A stretch of 64,000 bases of DNA from an uncultured Candidatus Saccharibacteria bacterium. GTDB taxonomy: Bacteria; Patescibacteriota; UBA1384; XYA2-FULL-43-10; 1-14-0-10-43-13. The stretch is from the NCBI GenBank assembly GCA_964406145.1, contig CAYOQP010000002.1, positions 13,537-77,536 of the forward strand. The letters run 5' to 3'. This document shows positions 7,185 through 25,301 of this stretch, one piece after another (the stretch's first letter is position 1; every line of letters starts with the position of its first letter). The position numbers and the translations under genes were made by a program. Under the pieces are notes generated by a model. The model did no database searches, was not told the origin of the DNA, and saw only the letters and a list, made by a program, of their open reading frames with translations.

Positions 7185-7241
7185 ATCGCAAGCTCAGCCT
7201 GGGAAAGATCGAATTCAGGCGAGCTAACAAGGAGCGGGAAC

Positions 7242-7871
7242 ATGCGTACTTTGATAATTTTGAGCCTTGTGCTCACGGTGGCGATCCCGATGATCGTCCT
7301 TACCGGTTGCGGCCAGAAGCAACCGGACCGTGCCCTTTTGGCTGCGGTGGACTACTCTGGCTCGGTTGATTCCAAGGAGCGCGCCGACTACGTCGGCAAG
7401 CTCGAGGAGCTGATCGACCGGCAGGATGGCAAGGCAGAGGTAACACTCTACGTCTTCGCCAAGACGCCGGAAAAGGTCTACTCTGGCCGACCTCTTGACT
7501 TCACCGACTGCTGGTTGGTGGATGACGAGACCAAGGCTCGTGAGGCCGACAAGACTCGTGGAACGAGTCTTGCTCCCACGCTGGAACAGTATTGCAGGGA
7601 TGCAGCTGCTACCAGCCTGCCAGTGATTGCCGTTCTGTTCACAGACGGTGATTGCTTCGATGTCCCGCGTACCAAGGCGGCGGCAAAGAAGCTGGCAGAA
7701 ATGTCTAATTTCAAATGTCTGATGGTCGGACCGCTGACGACCGATAGACTCGGACTAGAGAACAGTACCCTTTCGCCCCTGCGCGATAGTGGTAAGCTGG
7801 TCACTTGTGGCCAGCACGACGTCGCCGACGCGTTCAACACGCTCATGGCGAAAGTGGGAGGCTCCAAATGA
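7242..7871 (+). CDS. vWA-like lipoprotein
   Basis: Lipoprotein signal (LTGCGQ); MIDAS-like DYSGSVD; VIAVLFTDGD. About 60% GC. Confidence 0.55.
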   Translation: MRTLIILSLVLTVAIPMIVLTGCGQKQPDRALLAAVDYSGSVDSKERADYVGKLEELIDRQDGKAEVTLYVFAKTPEKVYSGRPLDFTDCWLVDDETKAREADKTRGTSLAPTLEQYCRDAAATSLPVIAVLFTDGDCFDVPRTKAAAKKLAEMSNFKCLMVGPLTTDRLGLENSTLSPLRDSGKLVTCGQHDVADAFNTLMAKVGGSK

Positions 7872-9190
7872 CAAACCAGCGTTACACCGACGTAGACGAT
7901 CTCCTGGCGGCTGAGCCCCAGGACACTACCGGAGCCCCCACGGCTCCCGATATGGATGTCATGACCCTGCTGCAGCCGATCAATCATGATCTGGCTGCAT
8001 ACCAGACCGCCATCGACGCGATGGCCGCTTCCTACCCGGAAGAGGCGGCGCGTCTGACAGTTCTGCTGTCCCAGCTTCGCGAGACGGGCAACCGTTTCGA
8101 GGATGCTCGTGCTAGCGCAGAAACGCTGCGCAACCAGCTCATCGGACAGCGCCAGACTCAGCGCAATACGATCGAGACCGACCTGAAAACGGTCGTCTCT
8201 GCTCTCGTACCATTGCGTCAGGCCCACGATGCCAAAGCGGCCGCCTTCCGCCTGGAAGCCGCCAAGTATGGTGTCAGTTGTGAGCCGTCTGGCCCCGCTT
8301 ATCAGGCCGCCCTGGCCGAAAAAGCAGGAGTCGTTATTCCGGAAGAGATCCCGGCCCTGCCGGAACTCATGCCGGAACTGACCCAGAAGACCAAGTTGAT
8401 GGGGCTGAGCGACATCTTCGCCTCGATCCTGGTTGGCCTCTTCGTCGCTGTCTGTGTGTTGAGCGCTTTCGGGTTCTTGACATATCGCGCGATGAAGACG
8501 GGGCAAATTGACCCGATCGCCTGGGTCCTTTCCCCGTTCGGTCCCCTCGTTGTCTTGCTCGTCGGCATTGCCATCGCCTGGGTGACCAGGAACCTGCTCG
8601 AGCTGGAGATGGAGGATTCGTCCAAATCCCAGCGCAGCATGGCTTATGGCTCTGCCATTGCGATCGGCGCCATCTGGCTGGCGGAGATGTTCTTAGAGGC
8701 CTACGGTCTCTTCCGTCTCTCTCAGGAGAAGGCTGCCATCGCGGCGCGCATGACTGGGCAACCGGTCGAGGCAACTCCGCTTGCGTTCCTCGTCATCCTG
8801 GCGCTGATCGTCACGACACCGTACTTCGTCTATAAGGCTCTCAAGGCCTACAACGATACGATGCCGCGGATCAAAGCCTGGCGTGAGCGCAAAGCGGCCG
8901 AGCGCCAACGGGCCGAAGCTCTGGCACAGCGCGCCAGCGCCTGCCAAGCCATAGAGACGCTATGTCGCACGACCCCGCGCCTGCGGGACATCGGCGGCAT
9001 TGTCGCTCAAGCGGACGCGCTCGCGTCGCAGATTGAGCCCCTCGAGGCCCGCGAAGTACTGCTCCGGGAATCCTTAGAGGACCTGGAGGGGGAGCCCGAA
9101 CTCCCTGCCCTTACCCAACAGACACTGCTGCGCTTGCGCACCGGTGTCGAGACCCTCGAGCACCAGCTCGTGGAACGTCTCACGACTTGA
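7868..9190 (+). CDS. polytopic membrane protein with N- and C-terminal coiled-coil regions
   Basis: ATGA overlap with the upstream stop; GGGAGG RBS; four hydrophobic helices in the middle; high GC. Confidence 0.55.
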   Translation: MTNQRYTDVDDLLAAEPQDTTGAPTAPDMDVMTLLQPINHDLAAYQTAIDAMAASYPEEAARLTVLLSQLRETGNRFEDARASAETLRNQLIGQRQTQRNTIETDLKTVVSALVPLRQAHDAKAAAFRLEAAKYGVSCEPSGPAYQAALAEKAGVVIPEEIPALPELMPELTQKTKLMGLSDIFASILVGLFVAVCVLSAFGFLTYRAMKTGQIDPIAWVLSPFGPLVVLLVGIAIAWVTRNLLELEMEDSSKSQRSMAYGSAIAIGAIWLAEMFLEAYGLFRLSQEKAAIAARMTGQPVEATPLAFLVILALIVTTPYFVYKALKAYNDTMPRIKAWRERKAAERQRAEALAQRASACQAIETLCRTTPRLRDIGGIVAQADALASQIEPLEAREVLLRESLEDLEGEPELPALTQQTLLRLRTGVETLEHQLVERLTT

Positions 9191-9214
9191 TGCCTTTACC
9201 GGCATCCCTATCAC

Positions 9215-9250
9215 GCCCTCGGCCAACCGGCCGAGGGCGTTGTGTATCTA
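9215..9250 (+). terminator. intrinsic terminator
   Basis: GCCCTCGGCC-AACC-GGCCGAGGGC perfect hairpin followed by a T-rich stretch. Confidence 0.7.
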
Positions 9251-9317
9251 TGGGATTTTTTACTTTGCCATATACATATATATGTATGAAGAAATCATAT
9301 ATAAAGTCAAATTGTTA

Positions 9318-9346
9318 TTGACAAAATAAATTTAGCGTGGTACAAT
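9318..9346 (+). promoter_or_regulatory. perfect consensus sigma70 promoter P1 (TTGACA-17-TACAAT)
   Basis: Seen directly in the sequence. Confidence 0.6.
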
Positions 9347-9531
9347 GCAGCGTTCTGAGGGTGAGTGAGTGGAAGACCTCAGGAGGTGCAAGATCGATTA
9401 AATAATTACGCTACATAGCAAAAGTGGCAGTAGAGTACTGGTAATTCGTTGGCTCCCCTCCGCCTTCGAGTTGCCAGTACTTTGCCGCCAGACGTATCAA
9501 CTTTACCCAGCTCAAAACAGACAATACAGTC

Positions 9532-9560
9532 TTGACAAAAACAGAAAAATGTAGTATAAT
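9532..9560 (+). promoter_or_regulatory. perfect consensus sigma70 promoter P2 (TTGACA-17-TATAAT)
   Basis: Seen directly; lies 214 bp downstream of P1. Confidence 0.6.
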
Positions 9561-10005
9561 ACTCTTATGCACGATAGGAAATGAAGTCGTGAGCAACACA
9601 CAAAATAGTAACGAAAAGCATGAATACTGGCGCATATGATCGAGGGTAATTGCACAGAATCAAGTTTACCTAGAATCAGGCGACAGCGTCCTGCATAATT
9701 CAATCCATCGCAAGATGGAATCGTGGGTTCCCCCTCCGCCCGCGAGAGTTATGCAGAACAGTGTCGCTTTATTTGTCTCAAAAGAGACAATATAGGGTCA
9801 CCTGCACATTAACAATATTATAAACTTTCTCAGCAAAGAATTAGCTAATCACACACTATGGCGCTCGTAACGGCGTAATCTGATCTTGCGATCACTCGCG
9901 CCAGAGGAAACGCCAGAATAGCCCTGATCTCGATTGGCAACTTCTTGCTGAGAAAGCACACTCCAGCCCGTCAATATGACGGATCTTGATAGAAGGAGAA
10001 AGACG

Positions 10006-10899
10006 ATGAATAAACTCGTCACCCTCATCACTTTGTCCGTCATCTTAGTTATGACGGCTGGACTCAACGCATTTGCCGTCTCTGACGGCTATGCCTACGG
10101 CACGGCCCCTGCGCCGACCATGACCAACCCGGCCCCTGTGCCGGCTACCAGTTCTTCCACTGCTACTGCGAAGGCAGAAGCCGTGATCAATCAGATGATC
10201 ACGAAGAAGACCGTTGTGGTCCACCGCCATGGTGGCGGGACCGTAGTCAACGTGCCGCGGCAAGCGGCACCCGTAGTGAATAACTACATCGTGCCGCCGG
10301 CACCGCCGGCAAAGGAGAACGATATGAGTGGAGTACTGATGGGCCTAGTGGTCCTCGGCTGCATCGCGGTTATCGGCGTCATCGCTTGGATCATTACTGC
10401 CGTCATTCAAGGCGGTATGATCGCTCGCACAGAGCAAGCCGCCGCCGCCCGTGAGACCGCACAGCAAAACGCCATCCAGGCCAATGCATTAGCGGCCGCC
10501 AATGCCGCTGCCCGTATCCCTGGGTATGAAGCGCTCAATCTGAGCGTCACGCCCACTGGCCTGCACATGAACGTGCGCCCAGCGAATCCCACGCCGGTCA
10601 TCCCCGCCGCTCCGGTCGCGCCGCCCCCAACGCCGATCATCATCATCCCGCCGGCTGCGCCTGCCCCTGCGGCCCCCGCCGCTCCGGCTGGCTACATGCC
10701 AGCGCCGGTCTTCACCGTAGCGCCGATCACCCTCGTCCCAGTCGGGCACGCTCCGGCACCCGCCCCGGGACCCGCACCTGCTCCGGCACCTGCCCCTGCA
10801 CCTCGTCCCGCCCCGGGACCCGCACCTGCTCCGGCACCTGCCCCTGCACCTCGTCCCGCCGGTGGTGGTGCTCGCCGCCCCGCTCGCACAACCCCGTAA
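10006..10899 (+). CDS. signal-peptide/TM protein with Pro/Ala-rich tandem-repeat C-terminus
   Basis: AAGGAG RBS; N-terminal signal peptide; one internal TM; PAPAPGPAPAPAPAPAPRPA repeated twice (48-bp DNA tandem repeat). Confidence 0.5.
   Translation: MNKLVTLITLSVILVMTAGLNAFAVSDGYAYGTAPAPTMTNPAPVPATSSSTATAKAEAVINQMITKKTVVVHRHGGGTVVNVPRQAAPVVNNYIVPPAPPAKENDMSGVLMGLVVLGCIAVIGVIAWIITAVIQGGMIARTEQAAAARETAQQNAIQANALAAANAAARIPGYEALNLSVTPTGLHMNVRPANPTPVIPAAPVAPPPTPIIIIPPAAPAPAAPAAPAGYMPAPVFTVAPITLVPVGHAPAPAPGPAPAPAPAPAPRPAPGPAPAPAPAPAPRPAGGGARRPARTTP
10763..10858 (+). repeat. 2 x 48-bp perfect tandem repeat encoding the Pro/Ala-rich segment
   Basis: ccccgggacccgcacctgctccggcacctgcccctgcacctcgtcccg occurs twice, head to tail. 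Confidence 0.8.
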
Positions 10900-11017
10900 G
10901 GTTTGTGCGGCAGAGATCCTGTCTCTATGCTCGCCCCCGTGGCGTGCTGGAGACAGTCCTCTGCGAATCATTCCAGACATTCACCCAGCGACCTTGAACT
11001 TGAAGGAGGTTTCAACC

Positions 11018-11569
11018 ATGTCCGACACTCCCGCCGGCACCACCGGCAAAGCGCAGATCAAGCTTCCGCAGCTTCCGCCGGCAGTTGAGCCGGAAGATCT
11101 GCGGACTCGCCTGATGGAAGTGGCAGTTGCCACCCCGTCCGGCGAACGCGCCAAGATGATCGATGCTCTCTCGCGGAAAATGGCCGGTGGCAGCAATGCC
11201 GTCGAGCATCTCCTCGAAGTGATCGAAGACACCAGCGCGGCGCGCGAAGAAATCGTCGGCGCCATCGCCATCCTCATCTCCCCCGCGATCTGGGACAAGT
11301 ACACCAATCCCGATCTGCGTGGAGCTGTCGTCTCCTGGCTCGTGTGGCTGGCCACACAGGAGTTCGACTCCGACATCAGCTTGACCGCGCTGGCGGCAGC
11401 CCAAGCCCTCCTCGCCGAGGGACCGCTCCGCAAGGAGCACGCCAACACAGTCAAAACCTGCATTCTGCAGGCGCGACAGATGGATCCGCCGCTCACCTGG
11501 TCCATCGCCGTCTCGTTCGTCTTCGACTTCGTCGCCAGCAATGGTGGCGAGTCGAAAGACAAGCAATAG
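11018..11569 (+). CDS. hypothetical protein (GC-rich island)
   Basis: GGAGG RBS 7 nt before ATG 11018; high GC; no recognisable motif. Confidence 0.4.
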   Translation: MSDTPAGTTGKAQIKLPQLPPAVEPEDLRTRLMEVAVATPSGERAKMIDALSRKMAGGSNAVEHLLEVIEDTSAAREEIVGAIAILISPAIWDKYTNPDLRGAVVSWLVWLATQEFDSDISLTALAAAQALLAEGPLRKEHANTVKTCILQARQMDPPLTWSIAVSFVFDFVASNGGESKDKQ

Positions 11570-11584
11570 TGAGCATCGCCGCGG

Positions 11585-11648
11585 CCCCCACTCTTCCTGA
11601 AAGGGTGGGGGATTCGCATTTTATAAGGACTTTATTAGTCCTTTTTTT
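11585..11648 (+). terminator. double hairpin terminator at the right edge of the GC-rich island
   Basis: CCCCCACTCTT...AAGGGTGGGGG followed by AAGGACT-TTATT-AGTCCTT and a T7 run. Confidence 0.65.
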
Positions 11649-11740: not shown

Positions 11741-12100
11741 ATGTCAAGTCAACAAGCACAGGACTCCATTGTTGGTGATATCATTAAAAAAGATCTCATC
11801 GATCTTTTGGGATTAAACGATCTACCTGAGGAGAAGAAAGAAGAGTACCGCAAGACGGCGGCTGAGACAGTCTACAACCGAGCCTTTATCCGTGCTACTG
11901 ATATGCTCGAAGAGATGGGACTACTAGAAGAATACCAGAAGGAAGATCGAGACGAAGAGGGGACTAAAGCCTTTTTTGCGAGTCACGGAATCGATCTGGA
12001 ACAATTGCTTAAAGATGAAGCCTTGATATATAAGACGCAGATGAAGATGTCTGCAGACCTACTGGATGCTGGGATAGACGTAAAAGCCAAAGCGGCTTAA
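11741..12100 (+). CDS. hypothetical small acidic protein
   Basis: GGAGGG RBS; 119 aa. Confidence 0.45.
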   Translation: MSSQQAQDSIVGDIIKKDLIDLLGLNDLPEEKKEEYRKTAAETVYNRAFIRATDMLEEMGLLEEYQKEDRDEEGTKAFFASHGIDLEQLLKDEALIYKTQMKMSADLLDAGIDVKAKAA

Positions 12101-12110
12101 GGGAGGGAAT

Positions 12111-15100
12111 ATGACAGTAGACGGACGAGGTCCATCACCTGAAGAAATGGGAGTAGATGTCAGCCGTGCTGGCGGTGCGGTTGTAGTTGATGCGAGCGAA
12201 GCATCTCCAGATGGTGGTGCTTTTAGTTTGGACGATCTTCCACCAGCAGATGTAGATCCTTTAGCAGGTGAAGATGCAGCTCCTGTTGTAGTTGATGAAA
12301 CACCAGAAGAAGGACTTGTTTCTGCTACTCCAGCCACCCAGGCCGAACCAGTCGCTGGAGCAACACTAGAAAGACCAAAGACTCAACAAGAGCTTGCAAA
12401 AGAAAAGAGAATGACCAAACTTGATGAATCAATCAAAGCGACGGCAAAGTTGGCCGAATCAGGCAAATTGCTGAAAATGGCCAAGTATCGCAAGAAAGAT
12501 GCCGGAGAGCATGTCGTCGATGGTCTTAAAAGCTTTGCCAAAAAAGCTGTCATTGGTGGTGCAATTGGTGGATTTTTTGCTGGTCCTCTTGGAATTCTAG
12601 CTGGTATTGGTGGTGCGGCCGGATCAGAGCTTGGAGTCAGTGTCGGCAAGATCTTTCGCGGTGCAGTCGACAAAATTGGCGAGATGAGTGGCCGCGAAAA
12701 TAAACAAGAAGATCTGAGAAGAGAACTCGAAATTCTCGAATCTGACAGACTTTGTAAATTGGCAGATTTAGCAGTCGCCACAGCAGAAGCAATAAGATTA
12801 CCAGAGGGCGAGAAAATTACTTTCGAAGGCGCTGAGTATACGGCGGATGAAATGCGTCTAAAATATTTTGAATTTGTTACTAAAATGGCTGATCCCAATT
12901 CTGCGGAAAATCAGGCCATGGCAGAGAAAGAGAAGAAATACAAAAAAGGAGAAGTCGGTTGGAAATTATTCAATGGCTTACTTGGTGTTGCTGGCGGCAT
13001 ATTAGCTGGCGGCGCGATAACCGAAGCCATCAGAGCAACACTTACACAACAAATTGCTTTGCATGGTGTTAATATGAAGACTGGCGGTATCGGCGAGCTT
13101 GCTGATACTTATGGCTCAGAGAGTCTAAAGCATATGCAAACCCTAGGCCATAATGTGCATGTGCATAATGGCGGAATAGTTTTTGATTATCAGGGTGGTG
13201 CTGGTGGAGCAGAGCTTCAGGAAATTGGTCAAGCAATGCAGAATGCTCCTGCTTGGCTACAGAATGGTCACTTTTTTAATTCAGAATTAATCCAGCAAGG
13301 CATGCACGAGGCCGAAGGTTTAAGAGCTCAGTTTACTGAGATTGTTGGTCGTGAAGTACAAACAAAAATTTATGGTATTATCGCTGGCATTGGTGCGGCT
13401 TCTGCAGTTGTTGATATGTTTAGGAATGATCGTGGCAAGAAGACTGGTAAAGTCGAGGCTATTTCTAAAGAGACATTATTATCCAGAGATCTTGCGCCGA
13501 CTCCTGCTAGTCCAGCGGCACCTGCGGGGCCAGCGGCACCAGGTGGTGAGGGCGGAGGAGAAGAGCTAGCTCCGATAGAGCTTAGGATCGGTGGTATATA
13601 CGGAGCTCGTACCGATTTGCTTGGTTCTGATGGCGCCGTCATTTTGCCTCGAGACGGCGAAGTCACTTTGGCTAGTGCTGATGCTGCTGCGCGAACAGTT
13701 GTCCTACAGCAGACTAATGCTGATGGGGAGACTGCTACATGGGAAGATTATCCTATCGATCAGTTCCAAACAAATTTTATTTATCTTAGAGGTGGCGCTG
13801 CGCCAGAAACATCAACAGAAGAAGATGAGAATGAAGAGCTTGAGCCTGGTGAAATATCAGCAGATGAGCAAGCCGAGCTTGATGATATGCCGGAGAACGA
13901 GCGGGAGTTCATGGAGGCTGCCTATGCTTTACGTGGTGCAAGGGGCCCAATCGCCAGAGCTGAGAGAGAAAATCCCGACGATGAAGTTACATATGTTGGC
14001 GAGGGCACATTCCAAACTTATCAAGATTTGATGGATGCTGGAGATACGGCTGGATTCGACATTTGGTGGAGCGGCCCAGAATATGGCCATATTCCAAATG
14101 TTGGGACAGCAGAATTTGTAGTTACGGGAGTTGTCTGTAGCCGCAATCCAGATGGCCAACTTCGTGTTGATTTCGAAATTGATATTATTGCAGAACCCGA
14201 TCCAGATATATTGGCTCGAGGCTATGAAAGAAAAGGCTTCTTTAATGAAGCTGGTAATAATGAGTTTGATGCCGAAGCTTTCAGGACCGCAGTAAATGAG
14301 GCATCCTTAACGGAGCCAGTAATAATTAGATTGTCTGATGGTCAAGTACTTCATGCCAATCCTAGTTCAGCTGGAAATGAGGGTTTTTCAATATTCAATC
14401 CAGATAATCCAGATAATCCACCTCAGCCGATAAAGTACAACGAGCTTACAGAAGAAGGTTTGAGTGGTGCTCTGGGTGTGGACTGGTACGTCAAAAAAAG
14501 TACGGAGCCGGTAGTAGAAGAAGCACCACTGGCTGATGGCGAGGACGAAGTTGTGCCTCTGCCAGGAGGCTCAGATGCAGACGCTGAAGTGCCGCTTATT
14601 ACTGAGAAAGAGGCTGGTCTTAATGAAATAAGGACACTGGTTAATCGTCTTGCGGCAGTCGGCCCAGTCAAGGCGGTTAGACACGAAGGCGCAAACGATG
14701 ATATTATTGATCCTGACCCAGGAAAAGTTGATAAATGGTTTCAATTTCATGATGAGATCATTGCGAAGAAGAGCGACTCTGTCTCTATCAGTTTTGTCAC
14801 GGAGGGTATAGAGACTTTTACTGATGGTTCTGAGTATATGCTAACTATAGATGGGACTCCAGAAATTTCAGAAGATGCAGATGGCAAAGTTAAGATTATC
14901 ATCAAGGGTCGTGCTGAAGCTGTCTCTGGTCCTGCGGAAGAGTCTGAATTGCCGGCGCCCGAGGGCGATCCGGCCGCGGCGGAGAAAGAAAGAATCCGTC
15001 AAGAGATCAATGATCTAGCAGTAGAATTGGTGGCTTTTGGGTCGGTAAAGATGAGAAGAACGGACACTGGTGCCGAGTCGCTTGACCCTGGATTTTTCCC

Positions 15101-16814
15101 TGCTTATTTAAAACTCAAAAATACCGCTGAAAGTAACGGCTATGAATTCCGACATACAATTGTTGGAATGAACGCTCTCGCTTCTGGGACAGAATTTTCA
15201 GCTATCTACGATTCTCAAGAGATAATTCAAGATCCAGACGGTAAAATGATTATTAAGGTGGTTGCTCATGTTGAGACGGCTCCAGCGCCAGCAAATCCTG
15301 AAGCTGATTTAGAGTCAGATATTTCTGGTAGTGAAGTTTTGGTTAATGCGGCTACTGGGGAAATCAATCCACCTTCAGCTGTTTCGGCCAAATATCCAGA
15401 TAAACGTTTTTCAATCAAGCCAGACCTGTCCTTCAATAAACCAGCCGTTGATTTTTATGCAAAGATTGATTTAGCGGCTGATTCATTTGGCATTACCCCT
15501 GATCCAGAATATCCTGATCATTTATTTGTTCCAATTACGCTAAAGCCGGCTGATGGTTTCACTGAAGCTGAGCGTGGAGGTTTTTTCCTTGAAGTTGATA
15601 TTTTCGGAAGAAATTGGGATAAATTCAACACTCGTTTCGCTAATCGCGAGACTAGCGGCGAAGTCTTCACTTTGCGTGACAGGAATTTAATTGAGTATAC
15701 GATTACCGGTCAGGATGGCGATGATTATATTATGACTTCAGCTGCAGGTGAGACGAGAATGACAGCCGACAAAATTAAGGCAAACATTGTTGACTGGTAT
15801 GCAAAGGCAGGTGAGGTGTCGACTGGAGCCCCAGAGACTGAGAATACTACGGATGCCCCACCTTCCCCAGAAGCCGGCACGGAGACGACAATTGATGCTG
15901 ATGTTGAAGCTTTAAGCGCACAATTCGTCGGAAAAGAATTTGAGTTTACGAGTCCGACTGATTTTCACAACGTTGAGGCTGATGGTTTTACGCTTGATGA
16001 TCAGATGAAGAAACTTGTAGAGAAATATCCAGATTTTTCAGCCAAGCCGATGTGGTTTTTGCCTGAGTCTGCTTCTGGCAAAGCCAGGATTTCCTCTATA
16101 AAAAAATACGAAAAAGAAGGTTATAAGTATTTTATGGTCAAGTTTGATATTGAAGAACTTAACCCCGATGCAATTTTATCTGCCGCTGGTTATGAACAAA
16201 GAGGAACATTACAAAGTGGGATAAAAGGAAATAATTTAGAGAAATATAAAAAGGCAATAGATTCGGGCGAACAGGTAGTTGTAAGAGATTATAAAGGTGG
16301 TATTTATCTAATGACAGGAAAAAATGCGACCACAGGTGATAGATACTGGGAGGGCAGACCATTCGATCCTATTACTGGTACAATTGGAGAGCCAGTTCCT
16401 AGTTTCGCTATGCCAGTTGACTGGTATGTAAAAAAGGCTGATGGCGGTGCTCCAGTCGGAGAGCCTGCGACTGATACTGGCACAACAGAATCTCCTGTCG
16501 ACGAACCACCAGCTGAAAGATTGCCCTTTGAGCGACTAGAGAATGGCCGTATTCGACTAAATTATCCAGATGGCAAGACCATAGAGCTCGGCGGACCGGA
16601 ATCAGTCACATTGCCGATAACTGAAAAGGGTGAGAAAAAAGATGCTACTGGAGTAATAATGAGTGTCAAGTTTTCGCCGCCAGTGACTGAAGAAACCGAC
16701 CTAGATATCAAGCTTCTAAAGGAAGGATCTACTAGGCTTTCAAAAGTTACTTATAAAGTTAGCGAATTAAAACAATATTTATTAGAGAAGAATCCTGGGC
16801 TACTTAGAGGATAA
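12111..16814 (+). CDS. giant acidic protein (1567 aa) with a Gly-zipper segment and internal DWYVKK repeats
   Basis: GGGAGGG RBS; uninterrupted 4.7 kb ORF; GGAIGGFFAGPLGILAGIGGAAG segment; repeated (V)DWY(V/A)K(K/A) motif three times. Confidence 0.6.
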   Translation: MTVDGRGPSPEEMGVDVSRAGGAVVVDASEASPDGGAFSLDDLPPADVDPLAGEDAAPVVVDETPEEGLVSATPATQAEPVAGATLERPKTQQELAKEKRMTKLDESIKATAKLAESGKLLKMAKYRKKDAGEHVVDGLKSFAKKAVIGGAIGGFFAGPLGILAGIGGAAGSELGVSVGKIFRGAVDKIGEMSGRENKQEDLRRELEILESDRLCKLADLAVATAEAIRLPEGEKITFEGAEYTADEMRLKYFEFVTKMADPNSAENQAMAEKEKKYKKGEVGWKLFNGLLGVAGGILAGGAITEAIRATLTQQIALHGVNMKTGGIGELADTYGSESLKHMQTLGHNVHVHNGGIVFDYQGGAGGAELQEIGQAMQNAPAWLQNGHFFNSELIQQGMHEAEGLRAQFTEIVGREVQTKIYGIIAGIGAASAVVDMFRNDRGKKTGKVEAISKETLLSRDLAPTPASPAAPAGPAAPGGEGGGEELAPIELRIGGIYGARTDLLGSDGAVILPRDGEVTLASADAAARTVVLQQTNADGETATWEDYPIDQFQTNFIYLRGGAAPETSTEEDENEELEPGEISADEQAELDDMPENEREFMEAAYALRGARGPIARAERENPDDEVTYVGEGTFQTYQDLMDAGDTAGFDIWWSGPEYGHIPNVGTAEFVVTGVVCSRNPDGQLRVDFEIDIIAEPDPDILARGYERKGFFNEAGNNEFDAEAFRTAVNEASLTEPVIIRLSDGQVLHANPSSAGNEGFSIFNPDNPDNPPQPIKYNELTEEGLSGALGVDWYVKKSTEPVVEEAPLADGEDEVVPLPGGSDADAEVPLITEKEAGLNEIRTLVNRLAAVGPVKAVRHEGANDDIIDPDPGKVDKWFQFHDEIIAKKSDSVSISFVTEGIETFTDGSEYMLTIDGTPEISEDADGKVKIIIKGRAEAVSGPAEESELPAPEGDPAAAEKERIRQEINDLAVELVAFGSVKMRRTDTGAESLDPGFFPAYLKLKNTAESNGYEFRHTIVGMNALASGTEFSAIYDSQEIIQDPDGKMIIKVVAHVETAPAPANPEADLESDISGSEVLVNAATGEINPPSAVSAKYPDKRFSIKPDLSFNKPAVDFYAKIDLAADSFGITPDPEYPDHLFVPITLKPADGFTEAERGGFFLEVDIFGRNWDKFNTRFANRETSGEVFTLRDRNLIEYTITGQDGDDYIMTSAAGETRMTADKIKANIVDWYAKAGEVSTGAPETENTTDAPPSPEAGTETTIDADVEALSAQFVGKEFEFTSPTDFHNVEADGFTLDDQMKKLVEKYPDFSAKPMWFLPESASGKARISSIKKYEKEGYKYFMVKFDIEELNPDAILSAAGYEQRGTLQSGIKGNNLEKYKKAIDSGEQVVVRDYKGGIYLMTGKNATTGDRYWEGRPFDPITGTIGEPVPSFAMPVDWYVKKADGGAPVGEPATDTGTTESPVDEPPAERLPFERLENGRIRLNYPDGKTIELGGPESVTLPITEKGEKKDATGVIMSVKFSPPVTEETDLDIKLLKEGSTRLSKVTYKVSELKQYLLEKNPGLLRG

Positions 16815-16821
16815 AAGAATT

Positions 16822-17778
16822 ATGGACACATCTACATCTGCAAAAAATGAAGAATTAGGTTCGGCCGGATCAGTGGACATCTATAGTCAGGAAGAGGAGC
16901 TGGATCCATCTTCACTTGATGATGAAACCAGAGTTGAAGTGCTGGATGATTTTTGTAATATTCTTTTGCCTTTAATAGAAAATCACAATTCACTAACTGA
17001 GGCAAAGAAAGATGATGAGGCTGAGCCAATCAGCACGAGAATCACAAAGTTTTTTGTCGACATGGTTCCTTATGGACCAGAATCAGAGCAAGTCTTGAGA
17101 ATGGAAAAAAGCGTCAAAGATGCAACATTGAGAGGCGATCTGCAATCCATCAGAGAGCAGGCTATTGCCGACAGGGAAGATTTGGCTAGGCACGCTGAAT
17201 ATATGGATAAGGTAAGAGGCATGGAGTTTATGACGAAGAAGAAGCTCGATGCGATTCCGGAGCCAGAGCCAATGAAGCCAGTGCCTTCTCTTCAAGAAGT
17301 CATCGATGCCAAGAAAGCCGCTGGTTTATCAACATTTACTTCGCCAAATGACGAGCTAATAATTGATGCAGTTGATCCCGAGACAGTGCCAACGGGCACA
17401 GCAGAAACGGTCGCGGCGACAAGAGACAATGATAATGCCGTGGAAACAGAGCATGCTGCGCCAGTAGAAACGACCAATGTGGTAACTCCAACGGAAGATG
17501 AAGCGCTTAAGACGGCAGAAGCTGTTAAGGTCGCCCCAGAAGAAGCAGAAGTCGAGACTCCAGTCCAGGCGGCTGTTGTCGAAAAGCCAGCAGGAGATAA
17601 TACTATTGATAAAGTCGAGACGCCGGTAGAGGTGACTACTGCCCCAGTTGCTGAGACGACTGATCCCGATAAATTGCCGTGGTGGAAGAGAGTCTTAGGT
17701 CTTGGGTCTAATCCCGACACTTCTCAGGTTGCTGGTGTTGGCCCCAACGGTCCGCTAGTTGAAGAAGAGAAAAAATAG
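16822..17778 (+). CDS. hypothetical acidic protein
   Basis: 318-aa ORF tightly linked to the giant gene. Confidence 0.5.
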   Translation: MDTSTSAKNEELGSAGSVDIYSQEEELDPSSLDDETRVEVLDDFCNILLPLIENHNSLTEAKKDDEAEPISTRITKFFVDMVPYGPESEQVLRMEKSVKDATLRGDLQSIREQAIADREDLARHAEYMDKVRGMEFMTKKKLDAIPEPEPMKPVPSLQEVIDAKKAAGLSTFTSPNDELIIDAVDPETVPTGTAETVAATRDNDNAVETEHAAPVETTNVVTPTEDEALKTAEAVKVAPEEAEVETPVQAAVVEKPAGDNTIDKVETPVEVTTAPVAETTDPDKLPWWKRVLGLGSNPDTSQVAGVGPNGPLVEEEKK

Positions 17779-17780
17779 AT

Positions 17781-20333
17781 ATGTACAGTGGAGGGAATTA
17801 TTATAATAGCGATCCAGGATTATTCGCGGATGGAATTCCGTGGTATTTTTGGTTGATCGGCGTAATTGTTATTATTGTTTTGGTTGCGATTTTCTATCAA
17901 TGGATCAGGCTCTGGATTCTAGCTCGTTTTCAAATGAGGCTTTCTAAGGACTGGGTCATGTACAAGATTTTGGTGCCGAAAGAACGACATGCCGAGGAAG
18001 ATGATCAGCGCAAGAATTTCCAGGAAATGCTAGCAGTTATTGAGCCATTCTATGCTAATCTAAATGCACTCTTTGATAATTCGATGATCAAGAAAATGAC
18101 TGGTCAGGTCAATGTCTCACTCGAAATTATCGCCAAAGACAATGTCATTTCTTTTTATGTTGGTTGTCCGAGAAAAATATCAGAGATTGTTTTGAAAAAT
18201 CTTCATTCTCAGTACGCTCATGCCGAGATTACTGAGGATAATAATTTTTCAATTTTTCCCAAGAAACCTCTTCAGATTGATATTCTGAATCTAAAGCTAA
18301 TCAAGAGATATTTGTTCCCGATTAAGACATACAAGAATCTCGAGGAAGATCCTCTCAATGCTTTGTCAAATTCGCTTTCTAAGCTTACACTTGATCAGCT
18401 GGCTGGAGTACAGATAATGCTGAGACCGACCTCTGGAATGTGGAGATTGCCGATCGAGCGCGCAGCCTTCAATATTCAGCATGGAAAATCGAGAATTTCT
18501 TATTCCTCATCGGCTACAGTCCGAGCCTCTGAAGCCTTTTTCAATTTCATTGGGCAAGCAGCTAATAATGCGACAGGCAAGGGCGAGGAACAACACACCG
18601 AATTTTATGATCCAAAAAATCCCATGAAAGTAACACCGATGCAAGAAGCACAGGTCAAGATGCTTGGCGAGAAGGCGGCTAAACTTGGATTTGAATGTCA
18701 AATTAGAGTTGTGGCGGTTGCTGAGACAAAGGATCAGGCCAAGCAATTGTCTCGACATGTTGCTGGCGCCTTCAATCAGTTCAATTCTCCTGATGCCAAT
18801 GGTTTTGTGACTAAGGAAGTTAAAAAAATGTCAGAGGAATTAGCCAACTATATCTTTAGGGTTTTCGGTCGGGGGCCGAGACTAATTCTTAATACTGAAG
18901 AGCTGGCTTCACTGTTTCATTTCCCAAATCGTTTTGTTGACACACCTAACATTGTTTGGCTGCTTGCCAAGAAGGAGGCGCCGCCAGCAAACTTGCCAAC
19001 CGAAGGCACGATTCTTGGCAAAGCCCTTTACCGTGGTCAGGAGCAGATGATCAAGATCAAACAGGGCGACAGACTTAGACACTTATACCAGATCGGTAAG
19101 ACCGGCGTGGGTAAGACTGTCCTTTTCCAGAACATGATTCTGCAGGATATTCTTGAGGGTAATGGCGTCTGTTATCTGGACCCGAATGGTGACGCGGCCG
19201 AGTGGATATTGAATCATATACCCAAGGAGCGTGCTGACGATGTCATCTACTTCAACCCAGCTGATCGAGAAAGGCCGATGGGTCTCAATATGTTGGAGTG
19301 GAAGACGTCTGATCAGAGAGACTTTTTGGTCCAGGAAGCTATTCAAATTTTTTACAAGCTTTTCGATCCCAATCAGACCGGTATTGTTGGTCCACAGTTT
19401 GAGCACTGGATGCGCAATGCCTCACTGACTTTAATGTCTCACCCTGATGGTGGCACCATCATCGATATCCCGAGACTCTTTACTGATCCAGATTTCGAAA
19501 AGAGTCGAGTCAAATATGTCAAAGATCCAGTTGTCAAATCATTCTGGGAGAAGCAGATGGCCAAGACGGCGGATTTCCATAAATCTGAAATGTTAAACTA
19601 CTTTACCTCAAAGTTTGGTCGTTTCATGACCAACGATATGATGCGCAATATTATTGGTCAGACCAAGTCATCTTTTGATTTCCGAGACATTATGGATAAT
19701 AAGAAGATTTTGATCTGTAATCTCTCGAAAGGTTTGATAGGGGAGATCAACGCATTTCTGCTGGGTATGATAATAGTTTCCAAGATCGCGATGGGAGCCT
19801 TCTCTCGCCAAGATATTCCAGAGAGTGAGCGTATCCCATTCTTTCTCTATGTTGATGAGTTTCAGAACTTTGTGACTGAGGTTTTTGCCACCATCTTGTC
19901 TGAGTCAAGGAAATACAAGCTGTCTCTAAATATTACTAATCAGTATATCGAACAGCTTGATGAGAAGATTAGAGCGGCTGTAATAGGTAATGCCGGCACA
20001 TTGGTGGCCTTTCGAATGGGTGCGGCTGACGCAGAATTTTTCGTCAAGGAATTTGAGCCGCTAAAGCCGGAGGACTTAACGACAATTGATAAGTATAATT
20101 TCTATATCAAAATGCTGATTGATGGGGCACCAACCAAGCCGTTTAACGGTCAAAGTATCTGGCCTGATGATCCAGAAGGAAATCCGAAGCTTGGAGCGGC
20201 GATTAAGGAGCTTTCCAGGATGAAATATGGCAAACCCAAAGAGATGATTGAGACGGAAATCCTAGAACGATCCAAAGTTGCTTCTATTGATTTACCAGGC
20301 CTACAGCCAACTTCAAACCAGCCCACTCTTTAA
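17781..20333 (+). CDS. membrane-anchored FtsK/HerA-superfamily P-loop ATPase (VirD4/TraG/VirB4-like)
   Basis: N-terminal TM; Walker A GKTGVGKT followed by DPNGD; Walker B FFLYVDEFQNF. Confidence 0.7.
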   Translation: MYSGGNYYNSDPGLFADGIPWYFWLIGVIVIIVLVAIFYQWIRLWILARFQMRLSKDWVMYKILVPKERHAEEDDQRKNFQEMLAVIEPFYANLNALFDNSMIKKMTGQVNVSLEIIAKDNVISFYVGCPRKISEIVLKNLHSQYAHAEITEDNNFSIFPKKPLQIDILNLKLIKRYLFPIKTYKNLEEDPLNALSNSLSKLTLDQLAGVQIMLRPTSGMWRLPIERAAFNIQHGKSRISYSSSATVRASEAFFNFIGQAANNATGKGEEQHTEFYDPKNPMKVTPMQEAQVKMLGEKAAKLGFECQIRVVAVAETKDQAKQLSRHVAGAFNQFNSPDANGFVTKEVKKMSEELANYIFRVFGRGPRLILNTEELASLFHFPNRFVDTPNIVWLLAKKEAPPANLPTEGTILGKALYRGQEQMIKIKQGDRLRHLYQIGKTGVGKTVLFQNMILQDILEGNGVCYLDPNGDAAEWILNHIPKERADDVIYFNPADRERPMGLNMLEWKTSDQRDFLVQEAIQIFYKLFDPNQTGIVGPQFEHWMRNASLTLMSHPDGGTIIDIPRLFTDPDFEKSRVKYVKDPVVKSFWEKQMAKTADFHKSEMLNYFTSKFGRFMTNDMMRNIIGQTKSSFDFRDIMDNKKILICNLSKGLIGEINAFLLGMIIVSKIAMGAFSRQDIPESERIPFFLYVDEFQNFVTEVFATILSESRKYKLSLNITNQYIEQLDEKIRAAVIGNAGTLVAFRMGAADAEFFVKEFEPLKPEDLTTIDKYNFYIKMLIDGAPTKPFNGQSIWPDDPEGNPKLGAAIKELSRMKYGKPKEMIETEILERSKVASIDLPGLQPTSNQPTL

Positions 20334-22059: not shown

Positions 22060-25000
22060 ATGAATTACATTTTATACATTATCTATGCTATCCTAATCAT
22101 TGGTCCGATTTACCTTATTTGGGCGATTATGAATATTAATAGAAAAATGAAAAAAGTTGACTGGCTCAATGCACAAGAATACACCATTCTTCGCATTGAT
22201 GTCCCGAAAAATAATGACAAGTCTCCGCTTGCCGCTGAGCAAATGTTTGCCGCTATTCATGGAATTTACTCGGAGAGTGCTAGTTATCAAAATCATCTCT
22301 CTTTCGAAATAGTTTCCAAAGACAAGTTTATCCAATTCTATATCTATCTTCCGGTCCATTTGAAAGATTTTGTCGAAGGGCAAATTTATGCTCAATATCC
22401 GACAGTTGAGATTCAGGAAGTAGGGGATTACACTCAAGAAATCGACCCTAAGTCACAGAACTATGCTACCTGCGAGCTCGGTCTTAATAAGCCTGATGTT
22501 TATCCGATAAAGCAGTTTACTGATTTTGAAGTTGACCCGATTTCCGGCATCACTTCTGTTATGACGAAGCTCAATGCTGGCGAGGAAATTTGGTTTCAGG
22601 TCATGATCAGGCCGATAGGCGATGAGTGGCAGGAAAAGGGTCATGAAATGGTTTCGCACATACGTAACGGCACGTCTCTCAGGGGTAAGGGGCTAGCCGG
22701 TCAGTTCAACAAGACATTAAAACTTTGGTTTAAAGCTTTCTTTATTCAGCTCGTTAAACCAGGAGAGGCTTTTGAAACTAAGCCATCTGAAGTTAAACTT
22801 CATGCTTCCGTTGAGGATGCTCTCAAAAACATTGAACAAAAAATCACCAAGCTGGGTTTTGAGACCAAGATGCGAATCTTGGCTTTGGGCGGAGATAGTG
22901 TTTCGGCCAGAATGAAATGCCAGAATGTTGCTGCTGCCTTCAAGCAATACAACACTACCCACCTAAACGGTTTCAAGGTTGGCGAAATTTTGGTTAACGA
23001 TCATTCGGCTTGGAAGGATTTTGCAGAGCGTTCTTTTGAAGATGATGGTAAGATTTTTAATATTTCCGAACTTGCCTCAATTTATCACTTGCCTCATAGC
23101 TCGGTTTCGACGCCAAATATTGTTTGGTCTGGATCCAAGAAAGGCGAGCCACCTGCTAATTTGCCTCTTCGTGAAAATACTCCAGAGGACGAACTAACTG
23201 TAATCGGTGAGACAAATTTCAGAAACAACTTCAAGGTTTTCGGCATCAAGAAAGATGACAGGCGCCGACATATCTACATTGTTGGTAAGTCTGGTGTAGG
23301 TAAATCAGTTTTGATTGAAAATATGGCTGTCAATGATGTTTGTGCGGGTAGGGGAGTGATTGTGGTCGATCCACATGGCGAACTAGCCGATAAGGTTCTT
23401 TCCTGTATTCCAGAAAACAGAATTAAAGATGTAGTGGTTTTCGATCCATCTGATCGTGAATTTCCGGTTGCCTTTAACCTTCTAGAGCATGTTGATGATG
23501 ACTTTAAGAGTATTGTCGCTTCAGGTTTCGTCGGTATTTTCAAAAAGATTTTTGGCGATTCTTGGGGCCCTCGTCTCGAGCATATTCTTCGAAACACGGT
23601 TTTGGCGCTTCTTGATTTTCCTGATTCGACCATGTTGGACATTCCGAGAATGTTAACTAATAATCGTTTTCGCGAAAAAGTTATCGAAAGAGTAAAGGAC
23701 CCAATCATTAAAGAATTCTGGCTCAATGAATTTGCTTCATTCGATAGCAAGTTCAGAACTGAAGCCGTTTCGCCAATTTTGAACAAGGTTGGACAATTTT
23801 TGTCTTCGGCCACAATCAGACATATTGTTGGTCAGCCAAAATCAACGATTAATATTCGTGAAATTATGGATCAAAAGAAGATAATGATTGTCAATCTTTC
23901 TCGCGGTAAGATCGGTGAGGATAATTCGGCCCTCTTGGGTGCAATGATGATCACCAAAGTTCAGCTTGCGGCTATGAGCCGTGCTGATGTTACTGTCGAT
24001 AATCGACCGGATAGTTATCTTTACGTCGATGAGTTTCAGAACTTTGCCACAGAATCATTCGCTGTTATTCTGGCAGAAGCCAGAAAATATAACTTGAATC
24101 TCACAATGGCTCATCAGTATATTGCTCAGCTTAAGGAGGAAGTGAGAGAGGCTGTCTTTGGTAATGCCGGCACAATTATTTCCTTTAGAGTTGGTGGAGC
24201 CGATGCTGATACTTTGGTCAAAGAGTTTGAACCAGTCTTTGAAACTAATGATATGGTCAATCTTGATAAATATCATATTTACATCAAGCTTCTTGTTGAC
24301 GGTGTTTCCTCCCCGGCATTTTCTGCTCGTACATTGCCTCCAGTCCAAAAACTAACAGGTAATCTTGAAGCTGTGATCAATAATTCGCGTAGCACTTATT
24401 CTCGAACACGTGCTGAAGTTGAGAATATGATCATGCACAGAAGCCAAGAGGAGGAAGAAGAGCTTAAGGCGGAAGCAGAGGCTTTCAAGCAAGGTGGCCT
24501 TGAAGCCCTTTTGTCCAAAAAACCAGTTTCTGTAACCTCTTCCCCAAGTTCTGAAGAGAAAAAGGGCGATCTTGATGTTGAGATTATCCAAGAGCCAGTT
24601 CCGATTAAATGGATCAATCCAGAGAAACCAGAAGTTAAGGATGTGCCAGCCGAGACCAAGACAATCGCTGAGCCATCAGAACCAAGGAACGAAAATGTTG
24701 AGACTAAAAAAGCAGAAGGTCCAAGAGTTGTGAAATATGATAGCATTCTGGACGGTAAAATTTATAAGGAAAGAACGGCTAGGGGAGGGGTGAAATGGTA
24801 TCTCGGGGAAGAGATTGACGAGGAAAAATTAGCCAAGAATAAGGTCTTATTAGATGACGGAGCTCGTAAAATTATTGAATTGTCAAAAGAAGTCGCGCCC
24901 AAAGGGGGAAAGAAAAATAACCAAAACAAGGGTGATGGTCATAAAAAAAATGATCATGAGGCAGGGGAGTCTCATTCTGGAAAAAGTGATAAGGTTGCAG

Positions 25001-25206
25001 AGAAGACTGAAGATAAAGACCCAGAGATAACTAAATTCCCAGAAAATCAAACTGAAAACGACAAGGCTAAAGAAGACAAAGAAGGGGCTGAAATCAAGAC
25101 TGAGCCAGAGGCAAAAATAGTCGCCGATAAAAATAACGATGAGCAGCCTATTAAATCCGATCCTCAGCATCTGGAAGAGGGCCAGTCGGTCAAAATTGGT
25201 GACTAA
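22060..25206 (+). CDS. membrane-anchored FtsK/HerA-superfamily P-loop ATPase paralog with Lys/Glu-rich C-terminal tail
   Basis: N-terminal TM; GKSGVGKS followed by DPHGE; SYLYVDEFQNF; alignable with the 17781 to 20333 protein across the whole ATPase region. Confidence 0.7.
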   Translation: MNYILYIIYAILIIGPIYLIWAIMNINRKMKKVDWLNAQEYTILRIDVPKNNDKSPLAAEQMFAAIHGIYSESASYQNHLSFEIVSKDKFIQFYIYLPVHLKDFVEGQIYAQYPTVEIQEVGDYTQEIDPKSQNYATCELGLNKPDVYPIKQFTDFEVDPISGITSVMTKLNAGEEIWFQVMIRPIGDEWQEKGHEMVSHIRNGTSLRGKGLAGQFNKTLKLWFKAFFIQLVKPGEAFETKPSEVKLHASVEDALKNIEQKITKLGFETKMRILALGGDSVSARMKCQNVAAAFKQYNTTHLNGFKVGEILVNDHSAWKDFAERSFEDDGKIFNISELASIYHLPHSSVSTPNIVWSGSKKGEPPANLPLRENTPEDELTVIGETNFRNNFKVFGIKKDDRRRHIYIVGKSGVGKSVLIENMAVNDVCAGRGVIVVDPHGELADKVLSCIPENRIKDVVVFDPSDREFPVAFNLLEHVDDDFKSIVASGFVGIFKKIFGDSWGPRLEHILRNTVLALLDFPDSTMLDIPRMLTNNRFREKVIERVKDPIIKEFWLNEFASFDSKFRTEAVSPILNKVGQFLSSATIRHIVGQPKSTINIREIMDQKKIMIVNLSRGKIGEDNSALLGAMMITKVQLAAMSRADVTVDNRPDSYLYVDEFQNFATESFAVILAEARKYNLNLTMAHQYIAQLKEEVREAVFGNAGTIISFRVGGADADTLVKEFEPVFETNDMVNLDKYHIYIKLLVDGVSSPAFSARTLPPVQKLTGNLEAVINNSRSTYSRTRAEVENMIMHRSQEEEEELKAEAEAFKQGGLEALLSKKPVSVTSSPSSEEKKGDLDVEIIQEPVPIKWINPEKPEVKDVPAETKTIAEPSEPRNENVETKKAEGPRVVKYDSILDGKIYKERTARGGVKWYLGEEIDEEKLAKNKVLLDDGARKIIELSKEVAPKGGKKNNQNKGDGHKKNDHEAGESHSGKSDKVAEKTEDKDPEITKFPENQTENDKAKEDKEGAEIKTEPEAKIVADKNNDEQPIKSDPQHLEEGQSVKIGD

Positions 25207-25271: not shown

Positions 25272-25301
25272 GGGTGATGCTTGGTTCACCCTTTTTATTT
25301 T
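25272..25301 (+). terminator. intrinsic terminator
   Basis: GGGTGA-TGCTTGGT-TCACCC followed by TTTTTATTTT. Confidence 0.65.

Follow-up and report, generated by a model that had tools for sequence, protein, structure and literature searches.

A giant acidic modular protein with a membrane-type N-terminal domain, encoded beside two VirD4-like ATPases in a Candidate Phyla Radiation bacterium

In a stretch of 64,000 nucleotides from an uncultured Candidatus Saccharibacteria bacterium (contig CAYOQP010000002.1 of the assembly GCA_964406145.1; the whole stretch is called the window below, and positions are counted from its first letter) a gene at 12111..16814 on the forward strand encodes an acidic protein of 1567 amino acids (aa), referred to here as the giant. 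The reading which we tentatively prefer is that the giant is tethered in the membrane and acts as a client of the orphan coupling-type ATPases encoded next to it, or as a platform for them, and that its long arm is cytoplasmic. A helical hairpin and two further helices would tether the protein in the membrane of the producer cell itself, with a His-containing loop alone outside, and the acidic modular arm would be found at the cytoplasmic face, where the membrane-anchored ATPases have their motor domains. The small DUF5663 partner and the conserved C-terminal domain of the giant would supply the constant contacts, while variable activity or binding specificity would come from exchangeable modules, among them a PPP phosphatase in two relatives. 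The arm could either be retained in the cell or passed on for export. The family to which the giant belongs is new, no database model, solved structure or paper covering it.

The open reading frame (ORF) is a genuine gene. No other long frame exists in the region, a GGGAGG Shine-Dalgarno (SD) sequence stands 5 nt before the ATG, and the ATG lies 11 nt past the stop of a 119-aa gene. The identical protein was found in an independent Logan assembly of the run SRR12261225, and an assembly artefact was rejected on this ground. The product has an isoelectric point (pI) of 4.51, 17.5% D+E, about 10% each of A, E and G, and 2 Cys. The initial annotation of this DNA had described a giant 1567-aa acidic protein with an Ala/Glu/Pro-rich N-terminus and without classical signal peptide, and the ORF, the SD sequence, the pI and the composition of the tail all agree with this description; by inspection, no signal-peptide-like start was seen at the N-terminus. 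The tail (aa 1-100) is probably disordered and differs in length and sequence among the relatives. Much of the giant is linker or low-complexity sequence, the folded modules being joined by acidic, Pro/Thr/Glu-rich linkers. The features of the gene are the following (AF2, AlphaFold2; pLDDT, predicted local distance difference test; K+R, Lys plus Arg):

12111..16814, + strand: giant ORF, 1567 aa, pI 4.5, ATG start (ORF and SD analysis)
12111..12410, + strand: N-terminal acidic Ala/Glu/Pro-rich tail, aa 1-100, net charge -14 over 100 aa
12411..13460, + strand: conserved N-terminal domain defining the family, aa ~101-450, the sole region matched by nearly all relatives
12546..12644, + strand: glycine-zipper hydrophobic helical hairpin, aa 146-178 (hydropathy, AF2, GxxxG, central GP turn)
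12957..13028, + strand: second Gly/Ala-rich hydrophobic helix, aa 283-306 (hydropathy, alignment, AF2)
13029..13358, + strand: conserved K/R-poor loop subdomain, aa 307-416, predicted extracytoplasmic (K+R 7%)
13359..13421, + strand: third hydrophobic/amphipathic helix, aa 417-437, followed by the basic cluster RNDRGKKTGK
13557..13820, + strand: small domain D1, aa ~483-570, common to the closest homologues; boundaries approximate
13968..14510, + strand: DWY module A, aa ~620-800, ending in VDWYVKK (z = 8.3; 50.7 bits)
14586..14942, + strand: tandem repeat R1, aa 826-944 (z = 12.2 against R2)
14970..15302, + strand: tandem repeat R2, aa 954-1064 (Smith-Waterman, L077 match)
15363..15830, + strand: module C, aa ~1085-1240, ending in VDWYAKA (marginal z; 1.1 bits)
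15894..16448, + strand: DWY module B, aa ~1262-1446, ending in VDWYVKK (z = 8.3; 27.1 bits)
16494..16811, + strand: conserved C-terminal beta-rich domain with terminal helix, aa ~1462-1567, which aligns in most members (pLDDT 80-93)

By hydropathy, three Gly/Ala-rich hydrophobic regions were located in the N-terminal domain, at aa 146-178, 282-307 and 416-437. The first is an uncharged hydrophobic stretch of 33 aa with a hydropathy peak of 1.79; the segment GGAIGGFFAGPLGILAGIGGAAG within it (aa 149-171) is conserved family-wide, and its glycines follow GxxxG spacing (G150-G154-G158, G161-G165, G167-G171). Across the family the first half of this region is without charge and the second half contains about 0.6 K+R and 0.5 D+E per sequence; in distant members it comprises about 40 aa with a conserved Pro at the middle. 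AF2 renders it as two consecutive helices, H36-62 and H64-97. Weak matches to the C19orf12-like family (PF20721) were obtained for 4 of 18 members (best E = 0.0043), and the N-terminal profile weakly matched the ATP-synthase c subunit (E ~1), both under the family thresholds; the giant itself gave no match to PF20721. Since the turn contains GP or the conserved Pro, the model shows two helices and the weak matches are of the hairpin type (c subunits being two-helix hairpins), we consider this region a hairpin rather than a single span. The glycine-zipper membrane segment that had been proposed in the initial annotation therefore holds, in the form of a membrane-type helical hairpin conserved across the family.

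Eight residues are invariant in the alignment of 18 sequences (A1), namely I108, S172, W284, G319, G326, H347, H399 and F408. H347 is also invariant in 34 full-length sequences and H399 is present in at least 90% of them; both histidines lie in the loop between the second and third hydrophobic helices, in the motifs GH(347)NVH...VFDY and GMH(399)E. The AF2 model of aa 96-460 had a pLDDT of 71.5 overall, with values of 80-95 in the soluble subdomains and 80-90 in the loop 307-416. Foldseek searches of this model against PDB and BFVD returned nothing below E = 0.1.

The topology was estimated by a hand-made positive-inside charge count over the same 18 aligned sequences. On average, the flank of 15 residues on the N-terminal side of the hairpin has a net charge of +3.5 and the flank behind it one of +1.8; for helix 2 the corresponding values are +1.7 and +0.3, and for helix 3 they are -1.1 and +1.9. 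The K+R content is 7% in the loop 307-416 versus 18-22% in the N-terminal helix and loop 1. Positively charged flanks generally stay on the cytoplasmic side of the membrane (positive-inside rule), thus the pattern leaves only the His loop (aa 307-416) outside. The N-terminal tail, loop 1 and everything past residue ~440, that is an arm of ~1100 aa, are predicted to be on the cytoplasmic side. Since helices 2 and 3 carry charged residues in several members, it is possible that they do not span the membrane; the whole protein would then be cytoplasmic and anchored by the hairpin. An arm outside would need the hairpin to be a single span, which contradicts the charge pattern. PPP-type phosphatases work in the cytoplasm, and the PPP domains found in the arms of two relatives also argue for a cytoplasmic arm. 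The suggestion of the initial annotation that the giant is a candidate host-interaction factor, if taken to mean a protein displayed at the cell surface, is at variance with both the charge pattern and the PPP domains; host interaction would be possible via dedicated export only.

The second part of the evidence is the neighbourhood of the gene, in which the following features were assigned:

11741..12100, + strand: small acidic partner, 119 aa, pI 4.5, DUF5663 (PF18908), with its own SD GGAGGG, directly 5' of the giant
16822..17778, + strand: acidic low-complexity mid protein, 318 aa, pI 4.3, positional equivalent of 350-600-aa proteins in the relatives
17781..20333, + strand: VirD4/TraD-like ATPase 1 of the type IV coupling protein (T4CP) type, with one N-terminal transmembrane (TM) helix, DUF8128 and a P-loop domain
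22060..25206, + strand: VirD4-like ATPase 2, ~35% identical to ATPase 1, with DUF8128 and with T4SS-DNA_transf, TrwB_AAD_bind and TraG-D_C above the Pfam cut-offs

For ATPase 2 the scores were 35.6 against a cut-off of 20.1 (T4SS-DNA_transf), 25 against 20.5 (TrwB_AAD_bind) and 25.9 against 22 (TraG-D_C); ATPase 1 was borderline, with 21.6 against the cut-off of 22 for TraG-D_C. The closest PDB sequences to the ATPases are TrwB and DotL, the Walker motifs are GKTGVGKT/GKSGVGKS and VDEFQNF, and the NCBIfam matches of both were all far below the equivalog cut-offs. Judged by the TM helix, the Walker A/B P-loop and the profiles, both are ATPases of the T4CP type. The intergenic gaps from the small gene to ATPase 1 are 11, 7 and 2 nt with strong SD sequences, and the only terminator-like hairpins given by consensus scans precede the small gene (11625-11643) and follow ATPase 2 (25272-25291). 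This arrangement fits co-transcription.

Using ATPase 1, 75 loci were fetched from species-representative genomes. In most of the loci with an ATPase at least 60% identical, the upstream genes follow the order [~110-160 aa][700-2040 aa][optional ~115-250 aa][240-600 aa][ATPase]. The gene order is identical from pth, L1, L10, L7/L12 and tgt to ATPase 2 in L077-L079, and the contigs with P0002, the closest relative of the giant in the HMMER search described below, have the same order from pth to DUF1290. The initial annotation had proposed to look for homologues next to similar ATPases elsewhere, and indeed the same ATPases adjoin them. Homologues of the 119-aa gene always directly precede the giant, in ~20 related loci and even where the pair is inverted. 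PF18908 matched 12 of the 22 members of the small-gene family (best E = 1.8e-5), and most database homologues are precomputed as PF18908; the 119-aa protein of the window itself is below the detection limit of PF18908. In other loci the gene before the mid-size protein is a paralogue with a weaker resemblance to DUF5663; the small-gene hidden Markov model (HMM) found no DUF5663-like region in the 318-aa mid protein. Neither DUF5663 nor DUF8128 is mentioned in the searchable literature.

When 1.84 billion cluster representatives were searched exhaustively by HMMER with aa 101-1300 as the query, 19 proteins were obtained at E <= 1e-3, nearly all of which match only query residues ~3-450 (aa ~103-550). 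Closest to the giant is P0002, a protein of 1937 aa with 44% identity, whose alignment extends to about aa 834; the unrelated P0018 (622 aa) has only the R module in common with the giant. Iterative HMM searches of the loci fetched through the ATPase gave 33 proteins with the N-terminal domain. A word-indexed search of 5.8 billion proteins with the full giant returned only itself, and a scan of metagenome contigs with a four-sequence N-terminal alignment (A7) returned only two contigs of the known closest homologue. No match was obtained for the giant in Pfam, NCBIfam, PHROGs or PADLOC, nor in PDB by sequence search with either the giant alone or the N-terminal profile. Judging from these searches, the family is very rare and confined to one Berkelbacteria-related clade within the CPR (Candidate Phyla Radiation). 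The initial view of a lineage-specific protein of a CPR bacterium was thus borne out, with 19 relatives among 1.84 billion representatives and the closest loci labelled Candidatus Berkelbacteria, and the homology to a housekeeping protein that would have spoken against it was not seen in Pfam, NCBIfam or PDB. At L002:5284-8433 a 1049-aa protein is encoded upstream of a DUF5663-like gene, a mid protein and the most similar ATPase 1 (81%). Although the family HMM did not pick it up, a Gly-zipper hairpin can be recognised in it together with a basic stretch and a region rich in His; sequence searches thus probably understate the extent of the family.

At the other end of the protein, the ~90-aa C-terminal domain follows the pattern ..F.Y..GG...I.PG..W....I..I......I.F..G.....S...W..F. 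The same beta domain is also part of an ORF of 200 aa that stands by itself between the genes of the giant and the mid protein (L017:7619-8221), and it is present at the C-terminus of P0008. The content between the conserved ends varies from protein to protein, the modules being duplicated, lost or swapped. An intact-looking PPP-type motif set (GDxHG / GDxxDRG / GNH[DE]; Pfam Metallophos) is present in the variable arm of 2 of the 34 members, the giants L008 (L008:1873-8004, aa ~1291-1345) and L015 (L015:5028-8390, aa ~748-814); the remaining 32 are without any Pfam domain.

The internal repeats were examined by Smith-Waterman alignment against 200 shuffles (z scores). VDWYVKK is found at aa 791 (nt 14481) and aa 1437 (nt 16419) and VDWYAKA at aa 1228 (nt 15792), where the number of DWY tripeptides expected from the composition is 0.022 (P(>=3) ~2e-6). 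Module A (aa 620-800) aligned to module B (1260-1446) with z = 8.3, while module C, which carries the remaining motif (aa ~1085-1240), gave z = 4.0 against B and 0.2 against A. With a DWY HMM trained exclusively on DWY-ending modules from other family members, A scored 50.7 bits, B 27.1 and C 1.1, the best of 2000 block-shuffles being 5.7. By both measures the relationship of modules A and B is significant and solid; the homology of module C to them is marginal. The strongest internal repeat is the tandem pair aa 826-944 / 954-1064 (R1 and R2, z = 12.2). Both repeats align to one segment of the giant of L077, the closest homologue (E 2.5e-29 and 2.8e-9); R1 is 58% identical to aa 1120-1238 of that protein, and R2 is the segment matching P0018. 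Thus, of the three DWYVKK-marked modules reported in the initial annotation, all three sites are where they had been placed and two of the modules are significantly related; however, the literal DWYVKK occurs only twice, one site being DWYAKA, the third site is marginal as a module, and the stronger R1/R2 pair had been overlooked. Self-BLASTP of the giant returned the identity match alone, the repeats requiring Smith-Waterman with shuffles and profiles. Since no DNA-level repeats were found in the gene and the duplications are visible at the protein level only, they must be ancient.

Modules and C-termini were aligned in 19 rows, and from this alignment aa 1255-1567 were modelled with AF2 (mean pLDDT 79, predicted template modelling score 0.59). 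In the model, module B appears as an alpha/beta unit with DWY in the last beta-strand, followed by a flexible linker, the beta-rich C-terminal domain and a helix; the best Foldseek match of this model in PDB had E = 0.12. The V(E/D)xW(R/K)xxF which closes the C-terminal domain resembles the VDWYVKK end of the DWY modules, and this suggests a common origin of the two. The DWY modules are confined to one subfamily (P0002-P0006, P0010, P0012, P0013). The D1 segment falls inside a 956-aa BLAST alignment with the L077 giant, and by inspection similar segments are present in P0002 and P0003.

The giant evolves several times faster than its neighbours. In the comparison with L077, the identity is 87% for L10, 85% for L7/L12, 84% for ATPase 1, 78% for L1, 75% for both the 168-aa protein and the sigma-like protein encoded between the ATPases, 73% for tgt, 69% for ATPase 2, 63% for the DUF5663 protein and 58% for pth. 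For the mid protein it is 25% over 137 aa, and for the giant 38%, in the first ~1000 aa only, the module content differing beyond. In a closer strain, L080 (Logan SRR24319150), the DUF5663 protein is 94% identical and the first 647 aa of the giant 67%. The Nei-Gojobori non-synonymous divergence (dN) against L080 (window 11741-14050) was 0.029 for the DUF5663 gene and 0.19-0.28 for the giant; the proportion of synonymous differences was 0.43 and 0.70-0.77, respectively, the synonymous divergence (dS) being saturated. The higher synonymous divergence hints at older or exchanged giant alleles and is compatible with allele exchange or recombination confined to the giant. The dN/dS of the giant is ~0.1-0.3; since this is below 0.3, it points to purifying selection together with a fast turnover, positive selection not being demonstrated.

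Several observations weigh against the membrane-tethered client or platform which we prefer. Synteny alone points to a functional link between the giant and the ATPases, and distant lineages (loci L040-L068) have the ATPase pair without the giant/DUF5663 pair upstream. The ATPases therefore do not need the giant; their locus is widely conserved, and the giant with DUF5663 has been added to it specifically in this clade. Fast divergence and module shuffling do not follow in any obvious way from the role of a resident cytoplasmic platform; proteins engaged in conflicts with hosts or phages show this pattern more typically. The phosphatase domains occur in just 2 of the 34 members. The topology comes from a hand-made count and not from a trained predictor, and since helices 2 and 3 are only moderately hydrophobic, with the charges mentioned above, the number of membrane passes is uncertain.

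The chief rival, which we hold to be rather unlikely, is that the giant is an exported effector with its own membrane-insertion helices, which would insert into the membrane of a target (host) cell. DUF5663 would act as a chaperone shielding the Gly-zipper helices, the ATPase would recognise the C-terminal domain and feed a channel encoded elsewhere, and the variable modules, e.g. the phosphatase, would act in or on the host. This would explain the rapid evolution and the enzyme cargo better. The small acidic partner gene tightly spaced directly upstream, the lack of a Sec signal and the substrate-recruiting T4CP class of the adjacent ATPases are consistent with it, as are the conserved ends around a shuffled central cargo with an enzyme domain in two relatives, the non-synonymous divergence 6-10 times that of the partner gene (the synonymous also being higher), and helices 2 and 3, which are marginally hydrophobic as in membrane-inserting secreted proteins. 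With respect to what is expected of a substrate of a type IV secretion system (T4SS), linkage to a coupling protein was found, the T4CP-like ATPase 1 being encoded two genes downstream of the giant within an operon-like array that is conserved; however, VirB4, VirB6 or other channel genes are absent from the otherwise housekeeping 64-kb window. The consistent positive-inside pattern better fits a resident membrane protein, and no homology to a known effector, chaperone or translocation signal was seen; the conserved C-terminal domain appears to resemble no known T4SS signal, and translocation would be hypothetical. Most T4CPs of CPR genomes lie away from virB4, and the T4CP of Southlakia is dispensable for epibiotic growth (10.1101/2025.01.22.634366). 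A minimal form of delivery, in which DUF5663, the giant and the mid protein would be a set of cargo and adaptors served by the orphan ATPase pair without a VirB4 channel, and the giant an effector acting on the host, is distinctly improbable in our opinion.

It is also improbable that the giant is a surface-displayed host-interaction or adhesion protein, anchored at its N-terminus with the arm outside. The large size, the acidic and Cys-poor composition, the Pro/Thr/Glu-rich linkers between folded modules, the extreme divergence, the shuffled modules and the CPR organism would suit such a protein. However, an arm outside needs an odd number of passes and the first stretch behaves as a two-helix hairpin, the charges put the side after helix 3 inside, and there is no signal peptide. 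The PPP domains of two relatives would make little sense extracellularly, and no adhesin-type domains (Ig-like, lectin, LPXTG etc.) were found with Pfam in the 34 members.

We consider it unlikely, too, that the neighbourhood is incidental and the giant a fast-drifting, weakly constrained membrane protein unconnected to the ATPases. Many loci without the giant do keep the two ATPases together with the 168-aa and sigma-like genes, much of the giant is linker or low-complexity sequence, and its dN/dS shows no overall sign of positive selection. Against drift, in roughly 20 or more species-level genomes the gene has the same place and orientation with respect to ATPase 1 in spite of the sequence turnover, the spacing is operon-like, His347 is invariant, both ends are under purifying selection, and a 4.7-kb gene is kept in very small genomes.

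That the giant is a remnant of a phage or mobile element, e.g. a tape-measure-like or ejection protein, is hardly credible: in its length, its coiled-coil-like helices and its hydrophobic segments rich in Gly it is reminiscent of tape measure proteins, its top BFVD match is one (not significant, E = 0.35) and ATPase 1 matches phrog_5156 with distant Bacillus phage homologues, but the giant has no PHROG match, tblastn of the N-terminal domain against 50,697 phage genomes was empty, no tail, capsid or integrase genes are nearby, the synteny from the ribosomal-protein genes and tgt to secDF is stable across species, and the Bacillus phage ATPase lies in an early/DNA-metabolism region without a giant partner. 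A tape measure protein proper was rejected, the gene being outside a tail module and without profile or fold match. A polymorphic toxin (LXG/Rhs/CDI) was likewise rejected, the C-terminus of the giant being conserved as well as its N-terminus and its variation central, with no matches to toxin or immunity profiles.

Further observations were made on the genes around the giant. The window is chromosomal, with RF2, pth, L1, L10, L7/L12 and tgt upstream and DUF1290, SecF/SecD, an AddA-like helicase-nuclease, FtsA/FtsZ, enolase, HisRS, RelA/SpoT and a Clp ATPase downstream. The two ATPase genes are separated by the 168-aa gene and a sigma70_r4/HARE-HTH gene, and this four-gene block was present in ~38 of the fetched loci, within the range L002-L057. 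The match of ATPase 1 to phrog_5156 is full-length (E 1.8e-86), and homologues 20-24% identical to it are gp156 of Bacillus phage G and proteins that B. subtilis siphophages encode in their early/DNA-metabolism region. The mid protein, which has a hydrophobic WWKRVLGLG ~35 aa from its end, is 25% identical to its L077 equivalent. Mid proteins as a group are nearly unalignable; many share (G)(F/W)(F/W/L)xR(I/L)(F/L)GG ~35-50 residues from the C-terminus, and ~14 of 33 end in '...AA'. The shared motif could be a recognition tail for the adjacent ATPase.

The part of the window at 7200-11600, exactly between tgt and the operon, has a guanine-plus-cytosine (GC) content of 57-70% in a genome of ~39-40% GC. 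The ORFs 7242-7871 (with a lipoprotein-like start and a weak vWA-like match) and 7805-9190 (Ala/Arg/Leu-rich, with TM segments) have no counterpart in any syntenic relative; foreign DNA or a join made in assembly may account for them. For the ORFs 9976-10899 (Pro/Ala-rich) and 10862-11569 there are L077 orthologues of 41% and 34% identity. L077 contains a kilobase of 64% GC at the same place, and the Logan contig begins near window position 10831. No match was obtained by tblastn of the GC-rich upstream ORF against plasmids, and neither tRNA genes nor Rfam families at the gathering threshold were found in the 64 kb.

In CPR genomes 5,713 VirD4-like T4CPs were counted, only 148 of them near virB4; the Southlakia T4CP was not essential for epibiotic growth, exaptation to other functions was suggested by the authors, and the role of the CPR VirD4-like ATPases unlinked to a type IV channel is unexplained (10.1101/2025.01.22.634366). 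The locus described here offers concrete candidate partners or substrates for such orphan coupling ATPases, and it defines a new family, with an N-terminal membrane domain containing an invariant His and a C-terminal beta domain. It is also a warning that not every giant acidic protein of the CPR should be taken for a surface adhesin. Should the connection with the ATPases turn out to be one of position only, the giant would be one more lineage-specific hypothetical protein.

Among known systems, the substrates of T4CPs (VirD4/TraD/DotL) with a dedicated small acidic chaperone or adaptor, such as VirE2 with VirE1 and the IcmS/IcmW clients, offer a first comparison. Like them, the giant adjoins T4CP-type ATPases, has a small acidic gene upstream, lacks a Sec signal and has a conserved C-terminal region; unlike them, it has its own membrane hairpin, its T4CPs are orphans of the CPR without VirB4 genes nearby, and there is no similarity in sequence or fold. 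Effectors of type VI secretion systems (T6SS) may carry N-terminal TM helices and are served by upstream Eag (DUF1795) chaperones. The two-gene layout is similar here, a small partner being followed by a large protein whose N-terminus has hydrophobic helices and whose downstream part varies, whereas PAAR/prePAAR, DUF1795 and T6SS genes are missing, the variation is central with a conserved C-terminus, and an immunity-like gene was not identified. With tape measure proteins of phages the giant shares its length, its richness in helices and the Gly-rich hydrophobic segments, in contrast to which stand the lack of any PHROG, Pfam or tblastn match and the housekeeping, syntenic chromosomal context. 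VirB6/PrgH/TcpH and the F-type TraG likewise join a membrane N-terminal part to a large soluble C-terminal part and have conjugation-type ATPases alongside; however, the giant has three hydrophobic regions with ~4 marginal helices instead of at least 5 strong TM segments, is away from virB4 and gives no Pfam or NCBIfam match, and a VirB6/TraG_N-type component was rejected on these grounds. Its hairpin resembles those of the C19orf12-like family (PF20721) and the ATP synthase c subunit in having GxxxGxxxG on two short uncharged helices with a tight turn, but it is one element of a 350-aa domain in a 1567-aa protein. In kind, the giant is one more lineage-specific giant modular membrane protein of the CPR, whose function we infer from its context.

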